Source: Bacteroidota bacterium (lineage in GTDB: Bacteria > Bacteroidota > Ignavibacteria > Kapaibacteriales > NICIL-2). Taken from it: a stretch of 64,000 bases of DNA. The stretch is taken from NCBI GenBank assembly GCA_019695345.1, contig JAIBAE010000005.1, positions 9,186 through 73,185 on the forward strand, written 5' to 3'. Positions within the stretch are counted from its first letter, which is position 1; each line of letters opens with the position of its first letter. Below are positions 4,305 through 20,283 of this stretch, piece after piece. Made by a program: the position numbers and the translations under genes. Under the pieces are notes generated by a model that did not search any database, was not told where the DNA came from, and saw only the letters and a program-made list of their open reading frames with translations.

Positions 4305-6626
4305 TCAGAATTTCCAGATTCTGAATTTGTAATTACCTGATGCATCGGCATATAGTCCGGCTAGTTTGGTTCCATTAGCACTATAGCTGAATGTTTGGAA
4401 GCGCGTGTTCGTAGCCGGCGTTGGTAGTGACTTTGTTAAAACACCCGACCCAACACTAAATATTGCAGGTGAAGGTGCATTTTGTGAACTTGTATAGCTA
4501 ACTAACTGTAATGCTGCATTTTTATTATCGGGTGTAATAGCAGCCGGATAATTGTAGAAATATTCACGCTGACCAGCCGAGTACATTACAGCTGCAATTT
4601 CTTTACCATCGGTCATACTAAAGAAAGAACCCGGTGTGCCTTCGGTATTACCTGTTGCCAACACTACTGTACCATCGTTAGAATATGCAATAATGTTACG
4701 GATTGATGTGGCAAAGCTTCGTGTAACATTTCCTGTGTTTGCATCTATTACATACATTGTTAATGGTGTTGTTTCGGTTTCAATTGCAAATTCATTATTA
4801 TTTAGGAAGTCTGATAACAACATAACATACTTAATCGTATTTCCGTTTACAGTTGTGATATCACGTATCAATGCTCCATCTGCTGCATTAAACACTTGTA
4901 ACAGATATTCCTGTTTGTTTGAATAATTACCAGCTACAACTCTAAGTCCGTCCGGCGATAGATGAGCATTATAGGCATCGAACGAAGCAAGTTTGTTTTT
5001 TGTATTGATATTATAAGTCTCGAATTTGCTATAAGCAGTTTGGACTAAGGCGACACTTCCATTTGTTGAGACCTCTAATGGTTGGTTGGTAAAGGTGATT
5101 GAATCTTTACCGCTGCCACTATTGCTGACGCTGAATTCATCAATTAATAAACCATCTGCAGTATTATAAATTTTCAGTTTGTTATCTACCTTAACATAAT
5201 ATTTAGTACCATCCTGAGAAATAACACCATTTGCTTGGCTATTTTTACTATTAACACCTAAATCAAAATCATTCGATTCAATGATGTTACCGGAACATGC
5301 GGTTATAGTACCTATATTTTTTTCCTGACTTGAAGCTAATGCTGGAACTCCGATAATATCGGATTCACGACCGTCGTTTGCCATTGCTTTAACAGTCATA
5401 GTAACTCCGTCACGTACTCTGATTTTGAATTGTCCGTTTCTTGCAAATCCGTAAAAGTAACCTGAGCCATTTGCATACTCACCAACTATGGTTCCGTCAA
5501 TTGGTTGATTCTCGCAGTTATTTAATACACCTGTAATAAATGCAGGACATGTTGTTAATTGCAAGTCAACATCTTTTACTTCTCCATTAGTTAACGTTAC
5601 TTCTATCTCGTTAGACTCTAATCCATTATTATCAGATGCATATACCTTAATTTTAATTGGCACCCCGGCTTGCACTCTGCGAATACCTGTTATATTTTCA
5701 TCTGTCGTTACTTTACGCTCTCCAACGCGCACTACTACACCGGCAATATTTTCATTATCGCAGTGTACTCGTATCTGTAAACGCGCTGTATCACCTTTGC
5801 TATCAAAATTCCATTCCGAAAAGTGAGATACATCACCTACATATTTATTACCGGTTTTTGTTGCAACGGATTCTTCCTTCCACATACCCAATGTTTCATC
5901 AAAGCTCCACAAAGGCATTGTATTTGGTGCATAGCTTTGCATGCCCGCAGGTACAGGTACACTAAGGGTTGCTTTACTTCCCGGAGCAATATTTAATTTC
6001 TCTCCACTTGCACCAGTTAATTCTACTCTCAGCACGCCATACGATAAAAGATTTGCATTAGTTCCATCTGTACTTCTTCCTTGGAAATCACCTGCAAAGA
6101 AATCATAAAAATTACTTGATGTTGGGTCAAGATGACGAACTACATAACTAACCTGACCACTATATGCAGCACCATTTGATGTTACATAACCATTTGCTGG
6201 AAATACAACTGAAGAAGTATTTGGTAAAGTTACAGTTTTGCCTGTAGTAGCACTAAAGCTACCTTGTGGTGCACTACTCATCATACCTAATATCACCCTT
6301 GTCACACTTCCTGCTCTGGGTTCTTCTGCACGAAATGCAGTAAAGTATCCCGATTTACTTGCTTTAATAACACAACGATTATTGGGTACATCTATATTGC
6401 TAATCATAAAAGTACCATATGAAGTAGTTGTAGCTTTAGAGGTTCCTATACTTACTTCAACACCGGCCATTGGTTTACCTGACTCATCTACAACTTGTCC
6501 GGCTATTGAAGTTTTTACCGTTGCTACAGTTGTTGTTGGATTATTGCTGGAATCGAAGGAACAACCGGCTATAATCAACGTGGTTACAAGGATTACTGCC
6601 GATAGCAACCATGTTATCTGTTTCAT
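4305..6626 (-). CDS. Large lipoprotein (773 aa) with an N-terminal carboxypeptidase-regulatory-like (CarboxypepD_reg) domain; function unknown.
   Basis: Lipobox ...LIIAGCSF. Motif GQVVDESGKPMAGVEVSIGT...ASKSGYF is typical of CarboxypepD_reg-like domains. The rest is beta-rich with no recognised catalytic motif. Confidence 0.55.
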   Translation of the reverse strand: MKQITWLLSAVILVTTLIIAGCSFDSSNNPTTTVATVKTSIAGQVVDESGKPMAGVEVSIGTSKATTTSYGTFMISNIDVPNNRCVIKASKSGYFTAFRAEEPRAGSVTRVILGMMSSAPQGSFSATTGKTVTLPNTSSVVFPANGYVTSNGAAYSGQVSYVVRHLDPTSSNFYDFFAGDFQGRSTDGTNANLLSYGVLRVELTGASGEKLNIAPGSKATLSVPVPAGMQSYAPNTMPLWSFDETLGMWKEESVATKTGNKYVGDVSHFSEWNFDSKGDTARLQIRVHCDNENIAGVVVRVGERKVTTDENITGIRRVQAGVPIKIKVYASDNNGLESNEIEVTLTNGEVKDVDLQLTTCPAFITGVLNNCENQPIDGTIVGEYANGSGYFYGFARNGQFKIRVRDGVTMTVKAMANDGRESDIIGVPALASSQEKNIGTITACSGNIIESNDFDLGVNSKNSQANGVISQDGTKYYVKVDNKLKIYNTADGLLIDEFSVSNSGSGKDSITFTNQPLEVSTNGSVALVQTAYSKFETYNINTKNKLASFDAYNAHLSPDGLRVVAGNYSNKQEYLLQVFNAADGALIRDITTVNGNTIKYVMLLSDFLNNNEFAIETETTPLTMYVIDANTGNVTRSFATSIRNIIAYSNDGTVVLATGNTEGTPGSFFSMTDGKEIAAVMYSAGQREYFYNYPAAITPDNKNAALQLVSYTSSQNAPSPAIFSVGSGVLTKSLPTPATNTRFQTFSYSANGTKLAGLYADASGNYKFRIWKF

Positions 6627-8742: not shown

Positions 8743-11700
8743 TTATTTTACTACTACTACTTGTTTGCTGAAATGCAACCCGGCGGCGCTCATGGTACAA
8801 TAATATGTGCCTGAGGCAATGTTCGTAGCATCAAATGTAGCTACATACAAACCTTCTGCATGCTTTCCATGCACAACCTGAGATACCTCTTTTCCGCTTT
8901 GGTCATACAATCTAATTTCTGCATCACATGGAGTGCCTAAACTATAGGTAATGGCTAATTCCTGTGCATGATTTACAGGATTTGGTGTAACAGATACCAG
9001 GGCAAACTGATTACTTGTCATCCTTACTCTTCGTATTGTAGCAGCGCAGGTTACAATTTGCACAGAACCTTCTTCATCGTGTTCTTCTGTACAGTCTAAT
9101 CTGAACTGAGGGAAACTAAACTCAATTTTAGCTAATGAGCTAAAATCGTTTGCTAAAAGTGATGTAAAATATGGAGTGAACAGGATACCATCTTTTGTAA
9201 TAGGTGTAATACCTGTTGCATGGAATTCGGCATAACCATCTGAACTGGTTGACTTATCAAACACTACATTCCACGTTGCATCCAATATTTCGCCTGACAA
9301 TATTTTCCTTGATGTATCTAAAATCATAGTATTGGGTGTATATCGGATACCTGCAATAACTTCTCTGATACGTAACTCACTCCAATAATTTGACTTCGCG
9401 GTTACTGGGTACGCAAATGTTGAATCCACGCCAACACTTGTAGACGATAATGACATAGTTACAGGACGTTGAACACCTGTACCACTTACAGTTACTATAG
9501 TTATTGTATCATTATAGTGTATTGCATATTTAACAAAGAACTGACCTAAAGCTGTTGGAATTATCCTTACCGGGAAATTAATTGATGCTGCGCCAACCTG
9601 CATTGTTGTAGGCAGTAACAGTGTATTCTGTTGTTGGAAATATGCCTTATCTGCAATCGCATTACTTTCTTGATACACTGTAACGCTATCAATCTTAACT
9701 GCAACTTCTCCGGTATTTGAGATAACAAACTGCGTTGTGGCCGTATCGCAGGCAAGCATTGCACTGAGTAAATTGACATCGGAACTCTGTACTTTTACCC
9801 CACATGGTGCAACATCTACAGTTACACTTGTATCGCGCCAACATCCGACAGCATTTGTGATACGGACAATATATGTTTGTTTTTGGGTTGGAGAAGCAAT
9901 AGGGTTTGCAATATCATATCTATCTAAACCGCTACCAGGAGGTGTCCAACGGTATGTTGTTCCACCGCTTGCCAATAATTGTATGTTTTTACCCTTACAT
10001 ATCGATGTGTCTTTTGTAATATTTACAACCGGCATCGGGTTTACTGTAATTGTAACACTGTCTAAACGTTCGCATAATGATATTGGATCACGTCCTCGAA
10101 CGTAGTATTTTGTTGTAGTATTTGGTTTAGCAATTGGGTTAGGACAAGTATCACAAGAAAGCCCAGTGTTCTTAGGTGACCATGAGTATGCAATTGTTGT
10201 TGAATCGGAAACATGTATAGCAAACGTCCCTCCGGCACACATTGCTGTATCGCGCTTTAGCACATTAAACGTTGGTCGTGTTCCTACTCCTAAACGTGCA
10301 GAAATAGTTGTGTCGCAACCATTTGGTGCTGTAATATGAATCTGATACGTAATGTTTCCTTTACCACTTGGAGTAGCTTTGGGATTAGGGCAATTATCGC
10401 ATGATAGCCATGTACTCGGGTTCCAAAAAATTGAGCTACCCGTTGGTTGACCCGAAACAACATACTGTATTACCCCACCTTCACATAAAGCTGTATCCAC
10501 CGGATTAACGGTAGCTGTGGGAGAATCCTTTACCGTTACTAAAACTGAATCAACCTGCCTGATACTACACTTTGAACTTAACAACTCTATAGTATACATA
10601 GTTGTTTTCAAAGGCGATGCTTTTGGCTTTAAGCAGTAAGGACAGTCTAATCCTGCTTCCGGTGTCCAGTGTACACTATCTGTTGAAACTGTTGTTGCAT
10701 CAAGTATAACTGATTCACCTCGGCAAATAGATGTATCGGGAGGTGCTATAATAGGCGCAGGAGCAGAGACTTTAATCTCAAATGTAACTGTTGATGTACA
10801 TCCTGCTGAATCACCCGTTACTGTGTATTTGATGTTAGCAGTAGGTTTTATTACATAGTTCTTGCATGTATCACATGCACCTAAATATGTTTTTGGTGAC
10901 CATTTAACTTTGCCACCAAAAACTAAATTCAAATCAACACTATCGCCTTTGCAAATTGTTTTTGAAGATAACTGTCCTTCTATGCCAGGGGCGTACTTAA
11001 TCTTGATAGAATCAACTGCATCACAATCAGCACTATTTCCATTCCGTACTCGTGCATAGTACACAATATCTTTTTTAGGCGGAGTTGCCAATGTTTGTTT
11101 ACACGTGTTGCAAGCAAGCCCCGTAGAAGGTGTCCATTGTATTGTTTGAAAATCACCTGTTGCAGTAATAAGCACCCCTGTTGAAGTACATAAATCAATA
11201 TCCGGGTCAATATTAACAACAGCTTTTGGTAATACGTAAATGCGAACAGAGTCTTCAATATCACAACCACCTGCATCTATAGCTTTATATTTATAGGTTG
11301 TAGTTACTGTTGGTTTTGCAGTAGTCATAACACAAGTATCACATTTTAATCCAGTACTAGGTGTCCATACAATTGACTTAACAATGCCTTGAACATAAAT
11401 CAATGCGGAATCATTTTTAAAGCAGATACTCTGATCAGGGGATTTAGAAAGTGAATTGGTCCCTGATTTTGGTTTAATCGTAACCGAGTCCATACCTTCA
11501 CAACCGGCAGAGTCACGAACGGTAACATAATAGGTAATTATTCCCGTAGGTCTAACACGAGTGGTTGCGCAAGTATCACACTTCAGTCCTGTTTTAGGAG
11601 TCCACCACACATACTTCAATCCTTTTGCAGTAACACGTAATGTAAGTGAGTCTTTAGAGGAACAATATTCTAAATCCGGACCTGCCTCAACAGTTATTGG

Positions 11701-13602
11701 TGGAGCCATTTTTACCTCTATGGTATCACGCCCGACACAACCTAATGAGTCTACTGCAGTAACTATATACTTGGTATTTTCATGCGGATTTGTTTTTGTT
11801 GATATGCATGTATCGCACGAAACCATATTCTTCGGAGTCCAACGTACACTTACCGGTGTTCCGTTTACGCCTTTTACTTTTAATGTTACCGAATCGGCAT
11901 AGGCACAAATGGTTGTATCCTTACCTGCATCAACTATATAATTGCGCACAGTAACAATAACTGTGTCTTTACCTTCACATCCTAACGAATCGAGTGCAGA
12001 TACTATATATGCAGTAGTAACAGTTGGTCTGGCAATTACTGTTCTGCACGTATCACAGTTTAATCCAGTCTTTGGAATCCACTTAACATTGGAAGCGGCA
12101 CCTGTAACAGTTATATGAACACTATCGCCATTACATATCTTTCTGTCCGGCCCGGCATCAATATCTACATCGGCTACATCAGGTACCAATGCCATCCCGC
12201 CAACATATCCATACGAATCTGCATTTCCATAACCATACACATACAACCCTACAGGTTGCGGACTTGTAATATTATGGGCTGCAGATGTCACATTAATATT
12301 TGCATACGAAAAACACGTATTAGGTATATCTAAAAATGTTGCTGTTAGCGGATTACCATCGTACCGGATATTCGCAATATTATTCCGAGTGGTTACAACA
12401 GTAATATATTGTTGTAAAAAGGAATTCATTGCTTGGATATTAGTATAACGATAGTTATTAAGGTATTGGCGGCGTGGAGGTATAATCATCATAAATGGGT
12501 CACCCACATTCGTTTGATTACCATTATCCGAGTGTGTTTTTTTGTAGAAAGCCACCATTACTTTTTTAGAAGCAACTAACAATCCTGCGGTGTTAAGCGA
12601 TGCCTCGTAAAACTGACCTCTGTTTAATGTTGCTACCTGCACATTATTAAAGTTCAGTACAGTTCCATCCTCGCTTGCAACAGCACGCCATAAATCAGTA
12701 CCAATGGTTGATATACCCTGTGGTTGGGCTAATGGAGTTATCACATAACTTCTTCCCCAAACTGAGGTAGGAAGCATCTGTTCATACAATTGATCTCTGG
12801 AGATTAATGTACCGCGTAAATTTACGGGTATAGTTGCACGCTGATGCCCTGCAAAAATTGCAACCGGTTTATTTGATGTAACGTGTGTTCCTGTTAAATC
12901 ATACCGCAACTGTGTTGTAGAAAATTCAGATTGAAATAAATAAGACTCACCCTTTTGTAAAGTTACAGTTACAGGTGCGCTACCTGTTTCGGTTGTTGGG
13001 ACGGTTTTAGTAACGGTAATCGTAGTATTAGAATCTGTTGCAACAACAGCAAACTCAGAAGGTGTATATGCCTGGTCAAGTTGATTGCCAAATGTTACCC
13101 CATCTGCTCGGTAAGCCATAACATAGTAATCTGTACCAAGTAAAGCAGTTGGTAAAATCATCGAGGCATCGCTTGTCATCACAGCTTTGTTCAAAGCATA
13201 TACTGCAACATTTTTATCGGTTGTGACCCTAAAGGTTTGTGTTGCTGCTTTCTCGTTGTCGTTATTCGTCGAAAAATTACCACTTTGGTTATATCCAACA
13301 AGTTCATATCCATCCCAATGTACCTGATATTTCCATATCACTGTTGGGTTTGTGATATTGATGTTTTGAGTAAAGGTTTGCCCCGATCTGTTTTTAAATG
13401 TCAACGTTCCCGTTGTTGCCGAATCTGCTACAACAAAAATGAACAACGAATCATTATTGCCACCCTGATTGTGATAATTCGGCAAATAGGTAAAATAGAA
13501 GTCTCGTCCGCGGGAAGTTTGCTGAGCATGTGTGGTAGAAGTCAACATACATACAAATACAACCGTAAAAACACCAAGAGCAAAACGCTGATAAAGCGAC
13601 AT
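8743..13602 (-). CDS. Giant T9SS-secreted adhesin-like protein (~1620 aa): N-terminal beta-helix-like region, ~10 tandem ~80-aa Ig-like SprB-type repeats with conserved CxxC...GC cysteines, and a C-terminal Por/T9SS sorting domain.
   Basis: Repeats of the form W[TS]PxTGLxCDTCxxxxAxPxxTTxYxVxxxDxxGCxxxDxVxVxV (SprB-repeat signature V.D..GC..D.V.V). C-terminus ...NIASGTYYCTMSAAGLHFSKQVVVVK is a T9SS type-A CTD. The signal peptide starts at the internal Met (MSLYQRFALGVFTVVFVCMLTSTTHAQQ). Confidence 0.8.
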   Translation of the reverse strand: MSLYQRFALGVFTVVFVCMLTSTTHAQQTSRGRDFYFTYLPNYHNQGGNNDSLFIFVVADSATTGTLTFKNRSGQTFTQNINITNPTVIWKYQVHWDGYELVGYNQSGNFSTNNDNEKAATQTFRVTTDKNVAVYALNKAVMTSDASMILPTALLGTDYYVMAYRADGVTFGNQLDQAYTPSEFAVVATDSNTTITVTKTVPTTETGSAPVTVTLQKGESYLFQSEFSTTQLRYDLTGTHVTSNKPVAIFAGHQRATIPVNLRGTLISRDQLYEQMLPTSVWGRSYVITPLAQPQGISTIGTDLWRAVASEDGTVLNFNNVQVATLNRGQFYEASLNTAGLLVASKKVMVAFYKKTHSDNGNQTNVGDPFMMIIPPRRQYLNNYRYTNIQAMNSFLQQYITVVTTRNNIANIRYDGNPLTATFLDIPNTCFSYANINVTSAAHNITSPQPVGLYVYGYGNADSYGYVGGMALVPDVADVDIDAGPDRKICNGDSVHITVTGAASNVKWIPKTGLNCDTCRTVIARPTVTTAYIVSALDSLGCEGKDTVIVTVRNYIVDAGKDTTICAYADSVTLKVKGVNGTPVSVRWTPKNMVSCDTCISTKTNPHENTKYIVTAVDSLGCVGRDTIEVKMAPPITVEAGPDLEYCSSKDSLTLRVTAKGLKYVWWTPKTGLKCDTCATTRVRPTGIITYYVTVRDSAGCEGMDSVTIKPKSGTNSLSKSPDQSICFKNDSALIYVQGIVKSIVWTPSTGLKCDTCVMTTAKPTVTTTYKYKAIDAGGCDIEDSVRIYVLPKAVVNIDPDIDLCTSTGVLITATGDFQTIQWTPSTGLACNTCKQTLATPPKKDIVYYARVRNGNSADCDAVDSIKIKYAPGIEGQLSSKTICKGDSVDLNLVFGGKVKWSPKTYLGACDTCKNYVIKPTANIKYTVTGDSAGCTSTVTFEIKVSAPAPIIAPPDTSICRGESVILDATTVSTDSVHWTPEAGLDCPYCLKPKASPLKTTMYTIELLSSKCSIRQVDSVLVTVKDSPTATVNPVDTALCEGGVIQYVVSGQPTGSSIFWNPSTWLSCDNCPNPKATPSGKGNITYQIHITAPNGCDTTISARLGVGTRPTFNVLKRDTAMCAGGTFAIHVSDSTTIAYSWSPKNTGLSCDTCPNPIAKPNTTTKYYVRGRDPISLCERLDSVTITVNPMPVVNITKDTSICKGKNIQLLASGGTTYRWTPPGSGLDRYDIANPIASPTQKQTYIVRITNAVGCWRDTSVTVDVAPCGVKVQSSDVNLLSAMLACDTATTQFVISNTGEVAVKIDSVTVYQESNAIADKAYFQQQNTLLLPTTMQVGAASINFPVRIIPTALGQFFVKYAIHYNDTITIVTVSGTGVQRPVTMSLSSTSVGVDSTFAYPVTAKSNYWSELRIREVIAGIRYTPNTMILDTSRKILSGEILDATWNVVFDKSTSSDGYAEFHATGITPITKDGILFTPYFTSLLANDFSSLAKIEFSFPQFRLDCTEEHDEEGSVQIVTCAATIRRVRMTSNQFALVSVTPNPVNHAQELAITYSLGTPCDAEIRLYDQSGKEVSQVVHGKHAEGLYVATFDATNIASGTYYCTMSAAGLHFSKQVVVVK

Positions 13603-13754
13603 AACACACCTTATTAAGAAGTGAATTCTTGCAACCCGATTATTAAGGGAGAGTTGCAACACAAAATACCGTTAATTCGCGTAACAACAATATCAAGTTT
13701 TTTAAATCTTTGTAAACAGCAATGTATCATCTGAGATAATAATTGTTACTATAC

Positions 13755-13953: not shown

Positions 13954-14427
13954 CTATAATTTATACACATCATTAAAGCGTGTATCGTCCCATTTGTGTA
14001 ACAAGATTTCATTAAACAGTTTCATGGCTTGTTGTTGTGCGGGTATAGTTAGCAATTCCGTTGCCTGGTGAGATTGAATCCACTGAAATTCATTGTGTTC
14101 ATCGGAAAGTTGCACGGGGAGTGAATGTTCCACTGTTGCGCCAAACACAGGCACGTGAACAATAGAATCTCTGCGGGGCGAATACAAACTTGATACAAAC
14201 GGTAGTACCCATAAGTGATTATGCTGTAATCCTGTTTCTTCCATGAGTTCACGCACAGCAGCTTGTACGGCCGTTTCACCGATTTCTATACGTCCGGTAA
14301 CTACTTGCCATAGTAACGGGAAAACAGGCTCGAGCGGTGCGCGGCGTAGAACTAGATGCTCCCAGGTTGTGGAATCCTGCGTACGCGCTATATGGACTTG
14401 AACCATCGTTGAAACAACTTCTGCCAT
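13954..14427 (-). CDS. NUDIX hydrolase.
   Basis: Nudix box GRIEIGETAVQAAVRELMEETGL (Gx5Ex7REUxEExGU). Overlaps the upstream RluB-like gene by ~20-40 nt, suggesting translational coupling. Confidence 0.8.
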   Translation of the reverse strand: MAEVVSTMVQVHIARTQDSTTWEHLVLRRAPLEPVFPLLWQVVTGRIEIGETAVQAAVRELMEETGLQHNHLWVLPFVSSLYSPRRDSIVHVPVFGATVEHSLPVQLSDEHNEFQWIQSHQATELLTIPAQQQAMKLFNEILLHKWDDTRFNDVYKL

Positions 14428-15767
14428 ACTCCTGTTTGCTCTGTGGTTGATGCTTCTTCTGTTCGTTCTTCTTCTACACGCTCTTCTACTTGCTGTATTT
14501 TTACGGAATCGGTGAAAATTATCTGTAGCTCGTCTTCATCTAATCTGCGCCACGACCCCGATGGTAAATCTGTTACCGATAATGAGCCAATTCTTCTGCG
14601 TTCTGTTGCAAGAATCTCAAATCCATTCTGTTTCAGAATACGGTTCATATCATGAAGCCGGGCATGGCGTACCGTAATACTTATCCACGAATTACGGGTG
14701 TTCTTTTGTGCTAATTCTGCCTTTGCAATTTCGTTGTTTTCCGGATGTAACTCGCGAACTGCTTTCGTAATTACTTCTAAATCTTTTTTCAGTACTTTTT
14801 TGTGTACCTTAAACCAATATTCTTTTTCCATCAGCGCAAACATATTGTGTTCGGCATGGCGCTGTTCGGGGTCGTTGGTGAGCACTACAATCCCGCTAAC
14901 ACTTTTAGCCAGCGGTCCGCACGGAATATGCCACCCGCGTTTTTTAACCATCAGGTTCATAATATTCCGCGATTGATACTCTCGCGAGCCGGCAATCTTT
15001 TTGGGCTTGTTCAGAACAATATAGATATTACGCGGGTTGTGCATTAAAAACACACCATTCACTTTAATAATATCCTGTAATATCCTTACCGATTTATTGG
15101 GAGATGTTGTAAGAATATCATTCACTGTAACCAAGCTATCATGCAGCGCATTCATCGAAACCCCACGCGAGCCATACACCAAACGCACTAATGCTTTAAT
15201 TAATGTTGTAGGCCGCTGCGGTGGTGGTTGGCGCGTATGCTGGTCATAACCATCGCGGGCACGCATTTCGTTCTTTGCCCTGCGCGACATCGGACGGCGG
15301 CGGTCATAATTATTATATTCTCTAAACTCACTTCGCTCACCTCTTGGTCTGTCGCCTCTGTTCTCGTACGGACGCCGTTGATACCCGCCACTTCTGTTAT
15401 CATCGCGGCGGAAACCTTCACGGCGTTCGGGATTAAATCTATCTCCTTCTCTACGTTGGTAACCGGAATCTCTGTTACTTCGGTAATCTCCTCCGCGAGG
15501 TGTAAATCCTTCTCGTTGTTGATTTCTACTTCTGTCGTAGCGGTTCTGTGGGGCACCTTCCCGGCTGTCGTATCTACGGTCGAATCTACGCTCGTAATTG
15601 CCTTCGCGTTGGTTTGCACCATCGCGGAACGGACGTTGTTGATACGGTCTGTTACGGTCAGGACGTTCGCCTCTATCGCCATCGTTGTTGCGGCGCGGCG
15701 GTTGTTCATTATCCCTATCGGGATTACGTGGTTGTTGTTCGTCAAATTCTTCAGGTTCTGTTGTCAT
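14388..15767 (-). CDS. RsuA/RluB-family pseudouridine synthase-like protein. It has a ~180-aa N-terminal Arg/Asp/Tyr-rich low-complexity extension, and the catalytic Asp of motif II is replaced (GPLAKSVSG instead of GRLDKDSEG).
   Basis: S4-like segment LIKALVRLVYGSRGVS... and RluB-like core ...IYIVLNKPKK...HIPCGPLAKSVSGIVVLTNDPE...EKEYWFKV align to E. coli RluB (YYKPEGE...IAVGRLDVNTCGLLLFTTDGE...EREYAV). I translated the DNA by hand: ctg gct aaa agt = L A K S. Confidence 0.7.
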   Translation of the reverse strand: MTTEPEEFDEQQPRNPDRDNEQPPRRNNDGDRGERPDRNRPYQQRPFRDGANQREGNYERRFDRRYDSREGAPQNRYDRSRNQQREGFTPRGGDYRSNRDSGYQRREGDRFNPERREGFRRDDNRSGGYQRRPYENRGDRPRGERSEFREYNNYDRRRPMSRRAKNEMRARDGYDQHTRQPPPQRPTTLIKALVRLVYGSRGVSMNALHDSLVTVNDILTTSPNKSVRILQDIIKVNGVFLMHNPRNIYIVLNKPKKIAGSREYQSRNIMNLMVKKRGWHIPCGPLAKSVSGIVVLTNDPEQRHAEHNMFALMEKEYWFKVHKKVLKKDLEVITKAVRELHPENNEIAKAELAQKNTRNSWISITVRHARLHDMNRILKQNGFEILATERRRIGSLSVTDLPSGSWRRLDEDELQIIFTDSVKIQQVEERVEEERTEEASTTEQTGVWQKLFQRWFKSI

Positions 15768-16047
15768 CTTGCCTCCCTAATGGCAAAGTAAACTGTACGT
15801 GGTGCATACAGTACAAACATCGGCCCCTATGCCGTGTTCAGATATTAAACAAGTGAAATAATCCTATCAAAGTAGTGCGAATATTCAGCGGATTACGTAA
15901 AATTTCGGTGTTCCCCTGTCAATCATTCCGCATCAATCATCAGATACGCGTACCGATACGTTGTTAGCTCCCCTTTGTTTCAGTACAAATATGTGCAAAC
16001 TTGAACGTTTACCAATACTCTTTCACAACTTTTTTTGGGTACCGCAT

Positions 16048-16111: not shown

Positions 16112-16247
16112 TGAAACAAACTGTAAAACTATTTAACCATTCTAAATCAGTGATTGACTATTTTGTACATAACAGAATTACAAAAAATAATGTCCGTTGC
16201 CTCCTTTTATATATCTCGTTATTTTTTCATTAAACCTTGGAGTCCCT

Positions 16248-17531
16248 ATGAACTCTACCAAATCAAGAAACGAAAACATTCGTTGTCTTGCTGTTGCCAT
16301 TCCCCACCAACACAATAAACTCGGTGGGGGGCTGAAACTAACACAATTTTTTTTCCTCCTATTCTTGCTCCTTGTGCTTAAGCATTCTCTAATAGCACAA
16401 ATACCCGGTTCTAACCGATTACTTCCCGATGGCAAAGCAGGTATTGGATATAATGATCCCGAACCGGCTTTAGAAATTTCGTCGCATGTACTTAACGAAA
16501 ACAATCCTTCAATTTTATTTTCAACAGGCGAAATACCTATTGGTGGAAGCGGTACAAATAGAACGGTGAAGGCTTATATTGCTTTATTAGATAATCTCAA
16601 TACATGGAGATATATGTGGCGCAATGCTGAAAATCATGATTTCCTGATAAAAGCAACAGCAACAGCAAACAACATCATATTCTCAACAGAAAGCGTTGCG
16701 GGGTATAAGTTTTTTACTCACGGAACGATTGAACGAATGAGAATGAATCATGCTGGTTTTCTTGGATTGGGTTCTAAAGATCCACGTGATATTTTGCATT
16801 TGCATTTTCAGCAAGGCGAAGATGATGTAAATCCACCCGACCCAAATCTAAATCCGAACTATAATTTGATGTTGGGCGCTGGAAGTATTTACTTTAACTG
16901 CCTTTACGATGACAGGGCGATTCCGATGGGGTATAAAAACTTTGATGGACGATTTGCATCTATGCAATTAGGGTATGATGAATTTGGTGTATCATTTAAA
17001 ATGGATAGATCTATCACATCAAACACATATATATTTAGCAGTAGAGAAAATTATGATTTTAAAGGGTTACGAATTACATCCGATGGAAGTATTGGTATTT
17101 GTAATCAAGCTCCTGTTGCAAGATTGGATATCAAAAGTCAACCACGTGGGCCGGCAAATATCAGAGTACCGGCAATACGACTTACTAATAGTAGTGGCAC
17201 AGAAAAGTTTAAGGTATTTGATGACGGCTTTGTGGCATGCAGTGAGTTAAAGGTTGCTATACCTGGTGGTAGCGATTGGCCTGATTATGTTTTTACTACT
17301 TCATATAAACTAACTCCATTATCAGAAGTTGAAACCTTTATCAACAACAACGGCCACTTACCCGGTATACCCAGTACAAAGGATATTGAAGAAAACAAAG
17401 GGATTGAGGTTGGTGCATTACAAGTAAAGTTACTTGAAAAAATTGAGGAACTTACCTTACATGTTATACAGTTAAAAAAGGAATTGGAAGAAACCAAAAA
17501 CAAACTTCTAACAATAAAAGGAAGTGACTAA
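16248..17531 (+). CDS. Secreted tail-fibre-like surface protein: Bacteroidota 'tail fiber domain-containing protein' family with a C-terminal coiled-coil/chaperone-like segment.
   Basis: N-terminal AGIGYNDPEPALEISS (matches the G.GIGT..P...L.V motif of this family). C-terminal ...NNNGHLPGIPSTKDIEENKGIEVGALQVKLLEKIEELTLHVIQLKKELEETKNKL. Signal-peptide-like hydrophobic stretch. First gene of an AT-rich block. Confidence 0.45.
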   Translation: MNSTKSRNENIRCLAVAIPHQHNKLGGGLKLTQFFFLLFLLLVLKHSLIAQIPGSNRLLPDGKAGIGYNDPEPALEISSHVLNENNPSILFSTGEIPIGGSGTNRTVKAYIALLDNLNTWRYMWRNAENHDFLIKATATANNIIFSTESVAGYKFFTHGTIERMRMNHAGFLGLGSKDPRDILHLHFQQGEDDVNPPDPNLNPNYNLMLGAGSIYFNCLYDDRAIPMGYKNFDGRFASMQLGYDEFGVSFKMDRSITSNTYIFSSRENYDFKGLRITSDGSIGICNQAPVARLDIKSQPRGPANIRVPAIRLTNSSGTEKFKVFDDGFVACSELKVAIPGGSDWPDYVFTTSYKLTPLSEVETFINNNGHLPGIPSTKDIEENKGIEVGALQVKLLEKIEELTLHVIQLKKELEETKNKLLTIKGSD

Positions 17532-18076
17532 TGAAATTTATTTACTATCTATTTTTATTATTCTTTTGTCTACTGTTTACTTCTAGTATAAGTCAGGCAT
17601 TAATCAATGACACAACAAATTTAAAAGTTATTGCACATACTGGGGCTGATAAAATCAGGTTATATTTATTTACAGGTATTGGTTCCAATCAAGGTAATAG
17701 AATTGGATTAAATGCTGAGTATAATAACTATAGAGTAGGTTGTGCTGTAGGAGGAGGTTTTAAAACATTGGCTTATCTTTTTGGTTCTGGCGATGCTGAA
17801 TACGTATATTCTGGTTTTGTTGAAGCACCATTTATACTATATCCGAAATTTAACATTGGCTGTTCCTACTCGTATAGAGTTTTAGGTAATAATAATAAAG
17901 ACTTAAGAGGAAATTTAGGAATGTACTTTATCGTAAACATATTACTATCAAGGTACTTTATATTTTCTTTCGGTGCTGGTTACGATAGGTTAGTTTTCTC
18001 ACAACCTGAATATATGGGTAGTAAATATTTAAACAACCTACACTTAGATATCAAACTAAATTTTAAATTATATTAA
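17531..18076 (+). CDS. Small (181 aa) putative outer-membrane beta-barrel protein.
   Basis: Signal peptide, alternating hydrophobic beta-strand pattern, C-terminal ...LNFKLY aromatic end. Its start codon overlaps the upstream stop. Very AT-rich. Confidence 0.4.
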   Translation: MKFIYYLFLLFFCLLFTSSISQALINDTTNLKVIAHTGADKIRLYLFTGIGSNQGNRIGLNAEYNNYRVGCAVGGGFKTLAYLFGSGDAEYVYSGFVEAPFILYPKFNIGCSYSYRVLGNNNKDLRGNLGMYFIVNILLSRYFIFSFGAGYDRLVFSQPEYMGSKYLNNLHLDIKLNFKLY

Positions 18077-18084
18077 GGTCTGAT

Positions 18085-20193
18085 ATGAAAATTACTTTAT
18101 ATGTTTTTTGGGTGTTTTTACTATACAGTTGTAATATGTATAGTAAAGGGCAATATCATAAGTTTATACATAAAGAACATGTTCATCAATACATCGTAAA
18201 AGAGGCTTATAAGCTACTTGAAGAAGAGGTCGGAGAAATTCCAATTTTAAAAAGTTACTTAGGACTAAACTATAATGGGAAAGGACCAACTCATAATCCC
18301 TGGAATGTAGATGATGCTGTTGTGATTGGTGCTTGGGAGGAAGATGAAATTGATGCTTTAAATTTTGGTGGCGGAGCATGGACTACAGTAACACATTTTT
18401 GGTCACCACATTGGGGTGATACTTGGAAGCCATATCTAATCGCAAGTGGACACAAGCCAAATGCATATATGAAAGCATTACGATATTTCGGTGGGAGTGA
18501 TTGGCAAACATATTATTTTGATGAATGGCAGGATTACTTCTTCTTTAACCGTAATGCATACCTTGGTGTTCCTGTTAATGGGACAGAAATCAGAGTAATT
18601 AGTACAAAATATCAGTACAACAATCTCTGTAATTTTCTAAGTGAAGGAAATGCAATACTTGTTGGAGTAACTGATATAGCAGGATATACGAGTTACCACT
18701 ATCAACAAGTTCAGTTCTCAGATATCGTACGTAAACAATATGGTTTTAATATTCTTGGCAGGATGCTACATTTATTAGGTGATATGAGCGTTCCAGCACA
18801 TACTCGTAATGACGATCATAAATGTAGCCCCCCACTTCCAGATCCGGAACTGTATGAGGTTTTTATGGGTTCGCCCTTGATTGACGGTACTTGGTATCCA
18901 TATATAATAGATTGCAATGATCACCCTAATGTATTTTTTGCTCAAAAATGGAACCATACAGATGTTAGAAAGAAGGGAGGATTACTATATGAAATATTTG
19001 ACATGAATGATGTTGATGCATTGCGATACCTTTACTATAGCGTGAGCATGCTAACAAACCATTTTCCTTCAACTGATGAAGATGGTATACATAATCTCAA
19101 TTATGGCACCACATTGACGATTAATCGTAAATATTCAGATTTAGGAACACCCCATACAAAAGGATGGATGGATGAAGATTTTGAATTTAATCATTTAGAC
19201 GATATTGCTAATGAGACTTTCACATATGTCATAAGGGCTAGCGCGACACTAATGTATTGGATGTGTGCTAAAACTGGATTAGTAAGTTGCCCAAATACAC
19301 GCTATTTACAAAGTGAACTTTATTACGGAGCCAGAGATGAGAATGAGGAATCAACAATATCCGCAAATACATCAGTGATAACAGGGAATAATGTGAAAGG
19401 TAATATACCAACAGGAGATTATATTGTTGAAAGTCCCGCTCGGCTATCTTTACGGGCAGGTAATTCTGTTCAACTAAAAAGTGGTACACATATCAAAAGT
19501 GGATCTAATTTCAGAGCATATTTAGGATCTTGCCAATTTGCATCAAATACATGTAGTTTGAATGGGAACACAACAACCGTTCAAGATGATAATAAAAAAG
19601 TAAATTTACTTACTCCGATAAATGACACAAAAAACACCATCTCTACTCAAGAGACATTAGATACTGTGCAAAGAATAGATATTAAGTTATATACAGGGTG
19701 GCAGAAAGATTCGATAGATATTGACACTGTTGCCTTTACTAATTGGTACAGCAGTAAACGTACAAAGGGTAATTACATCAGTACAACGGATTCTGCATTT
19801 GAGTTTTTATTACCATATTCTTGGTTAGCAGATACAGTTGTAATGAGAACTATGAATGACAGCATTATTAAAATTTATCCGAAACGAACTTTGGTTACGC
19901 TTAATCCATATGATGTGGTATTAACAGCTGATAGTATAGCTGTAGCTTTAATAAAACGAAACGATAATATCCCAATTCTTGCATACCCTGTTCCAGCCAA
20001 TGGTAGTAAACTACGTTTTGCTGAGTTTGATGTACAAGAGGTTACCGTATTTAACTCGTCGGGTGTGCCATATGGTACAGTCAAAGTAACTAATAATGAA
20101 ATTGATATTTCAGCTTTACCAAATGGTACTTACTACGCACGTATCCCAACATCAACTGGGTTTCTAGTTAAGCCATTTATAATTGTTCGGTAA
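18085..20193 (+). CDS. T9SS-secreted zinc-dependent phospholipase C / P1-nuclease-superfamily protein.
   Basis: HLLGDMSVPAHTRNDDH matches the H-x-x-G-D-x-x-x-P-x-H zinc-binding motif of Zn_dep_PLPC (compare C. perfringens alpha-toxin HYFGDIDTPYHP). N-terminal H..I..EAYKLL is also present. C-terminus ...ISALPNGTYYARIPTSTGFLVKPFIIVR is a T9SS type-A CTD. Confidence 0.6.
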   Translation: MKITLYVFWVFLLYSCNMYSKGQYHKFIHKEHVHQYIVKEAYKLLEEEVGEIPILKSYLGLNYNGKGPTHNPWNVDDAVVIGAWEEDEIDALNFGGGAWTTVTHFWSPHWGDTWKPYLIASGHKPNAYMKALRYFGGSDWQTYYFDEWQDYFFFNRNAYLGVPVNGTEIRVISTKYQYNNLCNFLSEGNAILVGVTDIAGYTSYHYQQVQFSDIVRKQYGFNILGRMLHLLGDMSVPAHTRNDDHKCSPPLPDPELYEVFMGSPLIDGTWYPYIIDCNDHPNVFFAQKWNHTDVRKKGGLLYEIFDMNDVDALRYLYYSVSMLTNHFPSTDEDGIHNLNYGTTLTINRKYSDLGTPHTKGWMDEDFEFNHLDDIANETFTYVIRASATLMYWMCAKTGLVSCPNTRYLQSELYYGARDENEESTISANTSVITGNNVKGNIPTGDYIVESPARLSLRAGNSVQLKSGTHIKSGSNFRAYLGSCQFASNTCSLNGNTTTVQDDNKKVNLLTPINDTKNTISTQETLDTVQRIDIKLYTGWQKDSIDIDTVAFTNWYSSKRTKGNYISTTDSAFEFLLPYSWLADTVVMRTMNDSIIKIYPKRTLVTLNPYDVVLTADSIAVALIKRNDNIPILAYPVPANGSKLRFAEFDVQEVTVFNSSGVPYGTVKVTNNEIDISALPNGTYYARIPTSTGFLVKPFIIVR

Positions 20194-20283
20194 TACATTA
20201 TGTTGTCGTATAAGCCACTGCATTTTTGTAGTGGCTTTTTATTTATGTTTTACTATTGGTTATATCAACCTACCTTAACGTTT

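Follow-up and report, generated by a model that had tools for sequence, protein, structure and literature searches.

Whether bacterial enzymes that modify ribosomal RNA (rRNA) are kept for the modification itself or for a chaperone-like role in ribosome assembly is a long-standing question. In Escherichia coli most knock-outs of modification enzymes show a weak phenotype, and assembly defects are rescued by only some of the catalytically dead mutants (PMC11194073). The question is raised again by one gene in a 64,000-nucleotide stretch of a Bacteroidota genome (GCA_019695345.1, contig JAIBAE010000005.1, positions 9,186 to 73,185; the window in what follows): for what is a pseudouridine-synthase homologue retained once the residues that perform the chemistry have gone? 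Where naturally dead proteins are under purifying selection the retained function is non-catalytic by definition, and the choice between modification and chaperoning becomes testable with them. The reading that we favour, with reasonable though far from complete confidence, is that the protein is a pseudoenzyme of the RsuA/RluB/RluE/RluF branch, that it cannot isomerise uridine, and that selection has kept it as an RNA-binding protein.

A first-pass annotation, a model's reading of the letters, had described the gene as an RluB-like synthase with its catalytic aspartate replaced, a long disordered N-terminal tail and a coupled downstream NUDIX hydrolase gene. Its open reading frame (ORF) was exact. 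The features of the gene are collected in Table 1.

Table 1. Features of the synthase-like gene and its neighbours; positions are those of the window.
Feature	Position	Strand	Basis
RsuA-family pseudouridine-synthase homologue lacking the catalytic residues, 459 residues, whole gene	14388..15767	(-)	ORF, Pfam/NCBIfam matches, PDB alignments, dN/dS
Degenerate motif II, residues 284-299, G-P-L-A-K-S-V-S-G-I-V-V-L-T-N-D	14871..14918	(-)	alignments
Ala287 (GCT) in place of the catalytic Asp	14907-14909	(-)	codon reading
Pro285 (CCG) in place of the intercalating, base-flipping Arg	14913-14915	(-)	codon reading
Motif III, residues 369-376, A-R-L-H-D-M-N-R	14640..14663	(-)	column counts; E. coli sequences
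Pseudouridine-synthase catalytic fold, residues ~246-420	14508..15032	(-)	PF00849 and Foldseek
S4 RNA-binding domain, residues ~186-245, Ser200-Arg201 kept	15033..15212	(-)	AlphaFold2, Foldseek, column counts
Low-complexity tail, residues 1-185	15213..15767	(-)	composition
Shine-Dalgarno-like GGGAGG (within AGGGAGG), 4-5 nucleotides 5' of the ATG at 15767	15772..15777	(-)	direct sequence reading
Family-specific C-terminal motif, residues 448-459, W-Q-K-L-F-Q-R-W-F-K-S-I	14391..14426	(-)	alignments, core model
Downstream NUDIX hydrolase, 157 residues, overlapping the synthase-like gene by 40 nucleotides	13954..14427	(-)	PF00293, 63 bits
accA, conserved upstream neighbour of the family; here an insert of ~5.6 kb lies between	21382..22368	(-)	Pfam ACCA, 485 bits

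The catalytic Asp and the base-flipping Arg are replaced

In HMMER alignments G284-P285-L286-A287-K288-S289 of the window protein fall on GRLDKD of RluF (3dh3), GRLDID of RsuA (1ksk) and GRLDVN of RluB (4lab). A MAFFT alignment of 62 sequences was also made, comprising the core of the window protein, 14 close homologues and 47 canonical relatives; G284, L286 and G292 are invariant in it. D fills the Asp column in 46 of the 47 canonical sequences but in none of the 15 close family members, which have A (11), S, N, E or P. At the Arg column all 47 canonical sequences have R, and the 15 have P (12), R, C or V. By alignment, then, the Asp nucleophile and the base-flipping Arg are both replaced (GRLD to GPLA). 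The three structure alignments and the 62-sequence alignment agree on the column, as the first-pass annotation had proposed, and no other Asp is placed there; its prediction of a dead protein is strengthened by the loss of the intercalating Arg as well. Its position for the GCT codon, 14928-14930, was about 20 nucleotides off.

The structure of RluB with RNA shows what each of these residues does: Asp110 is catalytic, Arg108 intercalates at the place vacated by the flipped-out uridine, Arg17 in the S4 domain is the anchor for the RNA, and Tyr140 lines the site; the R108A mutant has 0.6% of its activity left (PMC3919597). The equivalents of Asp110, Arg108, Arg17 and Tyr140 in the window protein are Ala287, Pro285, Arg201 (kept) and Tyr317 (kept). 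The RNA-binding and structural residues retained in the 62-sequence alignment are S200/R201, NKP, TND, K315/Y317 and R390, S200/R201 being present in 15 of 15 family and 46 of 47 canonical sequences. Motif III is only partly conserved within the family by column counts; ARLHDMNR is nearer to GRYHQVKR of E. coli RsuA than to GRNREVRR of RluB, the canonical form being G-R-N-R-x-V-R-R.

The fold and the S4 domain

The window protein matches PF00849 at 28.9 bits (cutoff 26.8; residues 249-370) and TIGR00093 at 66.8 bits, well under the cutoff of 109.3. Weaker NCBIfam matches were to RluF (57.9 bits, far under the equivalog cutoff of 318), RsuA (43.4 against 275) and RluE (18 bits); the NCBIfam scan gave no RluB equivalog match. 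A phmmer search against PDB sequences ranked RluF 3dh3 (4e-10) and RsuA 1ksk (1.5e-9) above RluB 4lab (1e-3), and blastp against E. coli ranked RluF (57.8 bits) above RsuA (55.5) and RluB (41.6). The accurate label, judged by these sequence comparisons, is RsuA-family, with RsuA and RluF nearer than RluB by every score. "RluB-like" was thus right as to the branch and imprecise as to the member, since E. coli RsuA and RluF outscore RluB and motif III is RsuA-like.

An AlphaFold2 (AF2) model of the core, built on the 62-sequence alignment, has a predicted local distance difference test (pLDDT) score of 94.2 and a predicted template-modelling score of 0.89, and supersedes an earlier run with a 12-sequence alignment (pLDDT 73). 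The top Foldseek matches to this model in the PDB are RluF, RsuA, RluB and RluE (E 1e-10 to 7e-17). Alignments with full-length RluF, RsuA and RluB span 236-256 columns; with the catalytic domains alone (RluF 2gml, RluB 4lab, RluE 2oml) the template-modelling score is 0.71-0.77 and the root mean square deviation 3.4-4.2 Å. The S4 domain proposed to follow the tail is a confident region of the model (pLDDT 94-98) and aligns with those of the full-length enzymes; Pfam S4 is not called on the window protein itself and is precomputed for several orthologues. As modelled, the fold and the S4 domain are intact.

The E. coli enzymes RsuA, RluF, RluB and RluE (1ksk, 3dh3, 4lgt, 2oml) have the catalytic fold of the window protein and, all but RluE, its N-terminal S4 domain too. 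The RsuA-family enzymes of E. coli share with the window protein the motif I NKP, LTND, KxY and the Ser-Arg anchor of S4. Unlike them the window protein has GPLA for GRLD, with neither nucleophile nor intercalating Arg, and it adds a 185-residue N-terminal tail and a family-specific C-terminal helix.

The gene is intact and under purifying selection

Fifteen close homologues were identified, from metagenome-assembled genomes of "Candidatus Kapabacteria/Kapaibacterium" where an organism is given, and 12 of the 15 have GPLAKS or GPLSKS. GPLAKS is also found in a 97%-identical protein of another assembly and in other species; this recurrence excludes the sequencing error at the GCT codon against which the annotation had cautioned. 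Six Kapaibacteria genomes ("Chlorobiota bacterium"; GTDB species representatives) each carry one family copy. Loss of the Asp is common to these orthologues, whose loci are syntenic; the position reads A, A, G, G, P and N across the six species while the flanking residues are fixed, and A, S, G, P or N among orthologues as a whole. That the Asp column drifts while its neighbours do not argues that the site has been released from constraint inside a constrained protein.

The ratio of non-synonymous to synonymous substitution rates (dN/dS) was obtained by comparison with the orthologue in GCA_016788765.1, which is 97% identical at the protein level. Over the whole gene there are 44 synonymous and 13 non-synonymous differences, giving a dN/dS of 0.074; the value is 0.086 for the tail (22 synonymous, 8 non-synonymous) and 0.059 for the folded core. 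Across species identity is 40-60% with the motifs conserved, and the ORF is intact in all genomes examined. Purifying selection is strong over the entire protein, the disordered Arg-rich tail included.

The N-terminal tail is not peculiar to the dead proteins

Residues 1-185 consist to 85% of R, D, N, E, G, Y, Q and P; there are 47 Arg (25%), D and E make up 20% and Y and F 10%, N, Q, G and P are abundant, and the net charge is +11. Because dN/dS is low in the tail too, it must be translated and selected, and translation of its whole length is supported by the Shine-Dalgarno-like site before the ATG. The tail is basic and of low complexity, as is the C-terminal tail of RluB. Low-complexity N-terminal tails are found in 42 of 52 complete family members; they are variable, with a median of 170 residues, 16% R, 7% Y, 9% N, 7% Q and a median net charge of +11.5.

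The canonical Bacteroidota relatives that were retrieved have similar tails (median 206 residues, 19% R), in a set biased by the word-based search that produced it, which favours tail-bearing proteins. The canonical Kapabacteria protein P0214 also has an Arg/Gly/Tyr-rich N-terminal tail. Since GRLD-bearing relatives carry similar tails, the tail would be an ancestral feature of the branch rather than an adaptation of the dead form. The annotated disordered, Arg-rich tail is therefore present, but the tail as a hallmark of the dead form was ruled out by these canonical relatives, with the bias of their set in mind.

The tail region is open in several frames (15200-15745 on the minus strand and 15228-15791 on the plus strand of the window), which invites wrong gene calls. 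At locus L085 a 216-residue "gene" is called at 5828-6478, upstream of canonical P0216, whose synthase frame is open from 5749; it is probably the mis-framed N-terminal tail of P0216.

Catalytic residues were lost repeatedly in a wider family

When 1.84 billion representatives were searched exhaustively with the family profile, about 44 clusters at 50% identity scored 190-432 bits, separated by a clear break from ordinary canonical enzymes, which start near 150 bits. The motif II types of the high-scoring group are GPL[ASGP]KS (the window type), G[VG]LP[AK][ST], GCL[DEN]KS and GRL[NHSTPI]KA, and GRLDK is retained in three members (P0073, P0083 and P0087). In a neighbour-joining tree with 100 bootstraps the GPL clade has a bootstrap of 99, the GVLP-type clade 96, the GRLxKA clade, which includes GRLD-bearing P0073 and P0083, 94, and P0087 (GRLD) with two GCLD proteins 100; the accA-type family as a whole has 94. 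GRLD-bearing members are thus nested in clades with 94-100% bootstrap, and this implies several independent losses of the catalytic residues in the family, with at least 4-5 losses of the dyad if GRLD was never regained.

A second Asp-less group, PFGRL[TSAG][KR]S, comprises P0051, P0110, P0115, P0116, P0121 and the protein of locus L007 (9014-12136), with P0133 and P0171 also listed and the GRLD-retaining P0128 at its base. It has a bootstrap of 100 with P0128 included, as does its union with the accA-type family. Its proteins often carry very long tails of low complexity at both ends; in L007 the ORF measures about 1040 residues from stop to stop.

In all six species the gene is preceded by a conserved block that comprises a gene for a Wza-like exporter, one for a sugar transferase, two for GT2 glycosyltransferases, and accA, and in five of the six the next gene is the NUDIX gene. 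Synteny with accA was seen at L001-L006, L086, L088, L089 and L090. P0075, P0093, P0083 and P0073 of the wider family all lie downstream of accA as well, which argues for one orthologous locus.

Probably active relatives and a likely origin of the dead protein

The canonical sequence nearest to the family profile is P0101, to which P0214 (NCBI [quoted passage not shown]) is 91% identical. P0214, P0101 and P0216 resemble the window protein in their Arg/Gly/Tyr-rich N-terminal tail, S4 domain and catalytic domain, in that order; they differ in keeping GRLDKNTSG and SEGKNRQVRKM, and are only 29% identical to it. A metagenome scan for canonical-type contexts returned only the P0214 contig, which is 2.1 kb long and has a NUDIX gene 82 nucleotides downstream, without overlap. 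This NUDIX protein is 43% identical to that of the window (E 9e-36), against 29% for the synthase homologues (L094 212-1630 compared with window 13954-15767). Within the dead clade the two genes of the pair, by their sequence identities, diverge at similar rates (54% and 50% for L001, 44% and 38% for L003).

As an orthologous NUDIX gene adjoins canonical P0214, the operon predates the loss. The 29% against 43% identity means that the synthase gene has diverged faster than the NUDIX gene since the split from the active lineage, and suggests a burst of change in it around the loss of catalysis. P0214 is probably, from these comparisons, the still-active orthologue; given the common NUDIX neighbour and the pattern of divergence, a transformed orthologue is a likelier description of the dead protein than a spare paralogue. 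No second RsuA-family ORF was found in the window with a hidden Markov model of family and canonical cores, which returned only the gene itself, nor in any related 20-kb locus. A contig scan gave a single family locus for each Kapaibacteria species; its other matches were unrelated canonical genes. Of the 120 best relatives of P0101 not one maps to the two large Kapaibacteria contigs with the dead gene, KatS3mg039 of 2.16 Mb and BPHK01000001.1 of 2.19 Mb, which is weak evidence against a further intact RsuA-family gene in the same genomes. The relatives P0214, P0083, P0073 and P0087, probably still active, are matched controls for the dead proteins.

The overlapping NUDIX gene and the C-terminal motif

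The proposed coupling to a downstream NUDIX gene was borne out by the Pfam match and by the overlap with the 3' end of the synthase-like gene (Table 1). The NUDIX box GX5EX7REUXEEXGU is perfect in the translation (GRIEIGETAVQAAVRELMEETGL), and the nearest solved relatives are Ap4A-hydrolase-type enzymes and NudB. The pair is conserved in L001-L005, L092 and L093, as well as beside canonical P0214; among canonical relatives NUDIX adjacency was found at 2 of 74 loci, on the opposite strand, an approximate count since the strict NUDIX-box regular expression missed some of the NUDIX neighbours in Kapaibacteria.

The overlap is 40 nucleotides in the window, L001, L002, L092 and L093, and 17 nucleotides, in another register, in L003 and L004. 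The NUDIX ATG is made up of the A before the Trp448 codon and the TG of that codon. The motif in the overlap has the consensus W-Q-x-L-Y-Q-R-W-F-K-S and is a predicted helix (263-271 of the core model) that follows an acidic linker. In L003/L004 it is kept as WRALYNRWY despite the different overlap; its persistence there ruled out that it is a mere by-product of dual coding with the NUDIX gene, and indicates that it is selected in its own right, with dual coding as an added constraint.

The final 13 codons of the synthase-like gene and the opening 13 of the NUDIX gene are dual-coded (window 14388-14427; L001 10780-10819; L002 10789-10828; L093 1271-1310). The DNA of this stretch (CAACGATGGTTCAAGTCCA) is nearly identical across species, one frame reading QRWFKS and the other T-M-V-Q-V-H, the conserved start of the NUDIX protein, and both A-preceded Trp codons yield in-frame ATGs for NUDIX.

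Discussion

The pseudoenzyme reading set out at the start can be given a mechanism. The protein would dock on structured RNA through its S4 domain (Arg201) and basic cleft, the target most likely being a stem-loop in rRNA such as RsuA, RluB or RluF binds, and the Arg/Tyr/Gly-rich tail may add non-specific RNA affinity or annealing activity. Its role would then be that of an RNA-folding chaperone, of a placeholder or assembly factor, or of a partner that targets the NUDIX protein to RNA, rather than that of a modifier; the amphipathic helix W..LYQRWFKS at the C-terminus may serve for docking, and the co-translated NUDIX protein may be the functional partner. By analogy with known systems the protein may be a chaperone for rRNA or an assembly factor. 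In E. coli, 50S assembly is stimulated by RlmB and RlmKL even when these are catalytically inactive (PMC11194073).

Several points weigh against this reading. RNA binding, the target and association with the ribosome are all predicted from homology. Within the family, Arg370 of motif III and a number of cleft residues are variable, and RNA binding by the cleft may therefore differ from the ancestral mode. When RluB, RluE or RluF was re-expressed in the E. coli delta-10 strain, growth was not significantly affected (PMC11194073), and as these enzymes gave no measurable rescue an assembly role is not a general property of the branch. Finally the neighbours (accA, polysaccharide genes, NUDIX) give no link to the ribosome.

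A wider form of the pseudoenzyme reading can be offered tentatively, and may well be wrong: that throughout the class Kapaibacteria the orthologue of an rRNA pseudouridine synthase, perhaps the sole RsuA-family member in these genomes, was turned independently at least 4-5 times into a selected non-catalytic RNA-binding protein. If true, it is a natural experiment in which the selected function is RNA chaperoning or ribosome assembly (or partnership with NUDIX) and not pseudouridine.

The alternative that survives best, which we nevertheless consider unlikely, is that the protein is not an autonomous chaperone but a non-catalytic adaptor or regulatory subunit, either delivering the overlapping NUDIX protein to RNA 5' ends or nucleotide substrates, or serving an intact synthase encoded elsewhere, as proposed for RPUSD3 with RPUSD4/TRUB2. 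The overlap of 17-40 nucleotides, the occurrence of the pair in at least seven genomes and beside the canonical orthologue, and the RPUSD3 precedent are all consistent with this; the nearest NUDIX types, Ap4A-hydrolase and NudB, belong to a group that includes RNA pyrophosphohydrolases, and the family-specific C-terminal helix could be a docking motif. However, P0075, P0093 and P0083 are without a NUDIX neighbour and equally conserved, and such adjacency is rare in canonical relatives (~2/74 loci, opposite strand).

It is highly improbable that the protein is a still-active synthase whose alignment is wrong, with another Asp/Glu or a different residue at the catalytic position. Tyr317, Lys315, TND and NKP are indeed retained, and some members of the wider family keep Asp or Glu (GCLD, GCLE, GRLD); but all four alignments agree, anchored by G284, L286 and G292, residues 280-296 hold no acidic residue, the position varies among orthologues, and the intercalating Arg is lost too. 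Moreover the Asp is essential in all characterised families (PMC3919597; bioRxiv 10.1101/2023.02.23.529727). A new chemistry or ligand in the old cleft is just as hard to credit: the family-specific Lys288 and Ser289 beside the lost Asp, together with Trp279, Arg392 and Trp406, could be read in this way, but they are not conserved across the wider family, where the motif is K[SA], P[AK][ST] or other, and a new set of invariant polar residues is not apparent. A decaying pseudogene, or a sequencing or assembly error at the motif II codons, would call for only single-base changes (GAT to GCT, CGG to CCG) and has next to no chance of being right, being refuted by intact ORFs, a dN/dS of 0.07, GPLAKS in independent assemblies and motifs kept at 40-60% identity across species.

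Pseudouridine-synthase pseudoenzymes are already known, mainly from mitochondria; what appears new here is a case that is bacterial, belongs to the RsuA family, spans a class and has evolved repeatedly. No description of a bacterial Asp-less synthase family was found in the searchable literature, which covers few subscription-journal papers. Human mitochondrial RPUSD3 is without the catalytic Asp (RASG for HRLD) and is considered a pseudoenzyme (PMC12710931). Like the window protein it is an Asp-less synthase homologue, and it is still required for rRNA and mitoribosome function; unlike it, RPUSD3 is of the RluA family, eukaryotic and organellar, its active paralogue partners are known, and it does not have the S4 domain with the long N-terminal tail. 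In Trypanosoma brucei the assembly factor mt-LAF3 of the mitoribosome large subunit is fully functional as D211A (bioRxiv 10.1101/2023.02.23.529727). It too has lost the base-flipping Arg (HNLD), and is an RNA-binding scaffold for which catalysis is dispensable; it differs in keeping the Asp, in being a eukaryotic RluA-family protein, and in that its role was seen structurally on assembly intermediates.

E. coli rluE-nudJ offers a parallel for the gene order, with a synthase gene followed by a NUDIX gene on the same strand, 9 nucleotides apart where the window pair overlaps (L081 3828-4952, E. coli K-12 1193827-1194951). RluE, unlike the window protein, is active and without an S4 domain, and NudJ matches the window NUDIX protein in the NUDIX-box region only (47% over 45 residues, E=8e-08).

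Current database labels of the family are "pseudouridine synthase", "23S rRNA pseudouridine2605 synthase" and "hypothetical protein"; the first two probably overstate its activity.

Genomic surroundings of the gene

Scans around the gene for Rfam families, promoters and terminators, and tandem repeats gave nothing above chance. The insert between accA and the gene holds four ORFs on the plus strand (16197-21171) of 444, 181, 702 and 323 residues, three of them without a Pfam match and one with a weak match to a type IX secretion system (T9SS) C-terminal sorting domain, below the Pfam cutoff. The other Kapaibacteria examined have accA no more than about 1.3 kb from the gene, and no conserved ORF intervenes; at least part of the insert is common to the sister genome (L092), which has divergent genes upstream. 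Directly 3' of the NUDIX gene, at 8743-13662 on the minus strand, is a gene for a 1639-residue secreted protein with IgGFc-binding, CHU_C-associated Ig-like and FlgD-Ig domains and a sub-threshold match to a T9SS sorting tail, of which a shorter homologue is found at the same place in L092.

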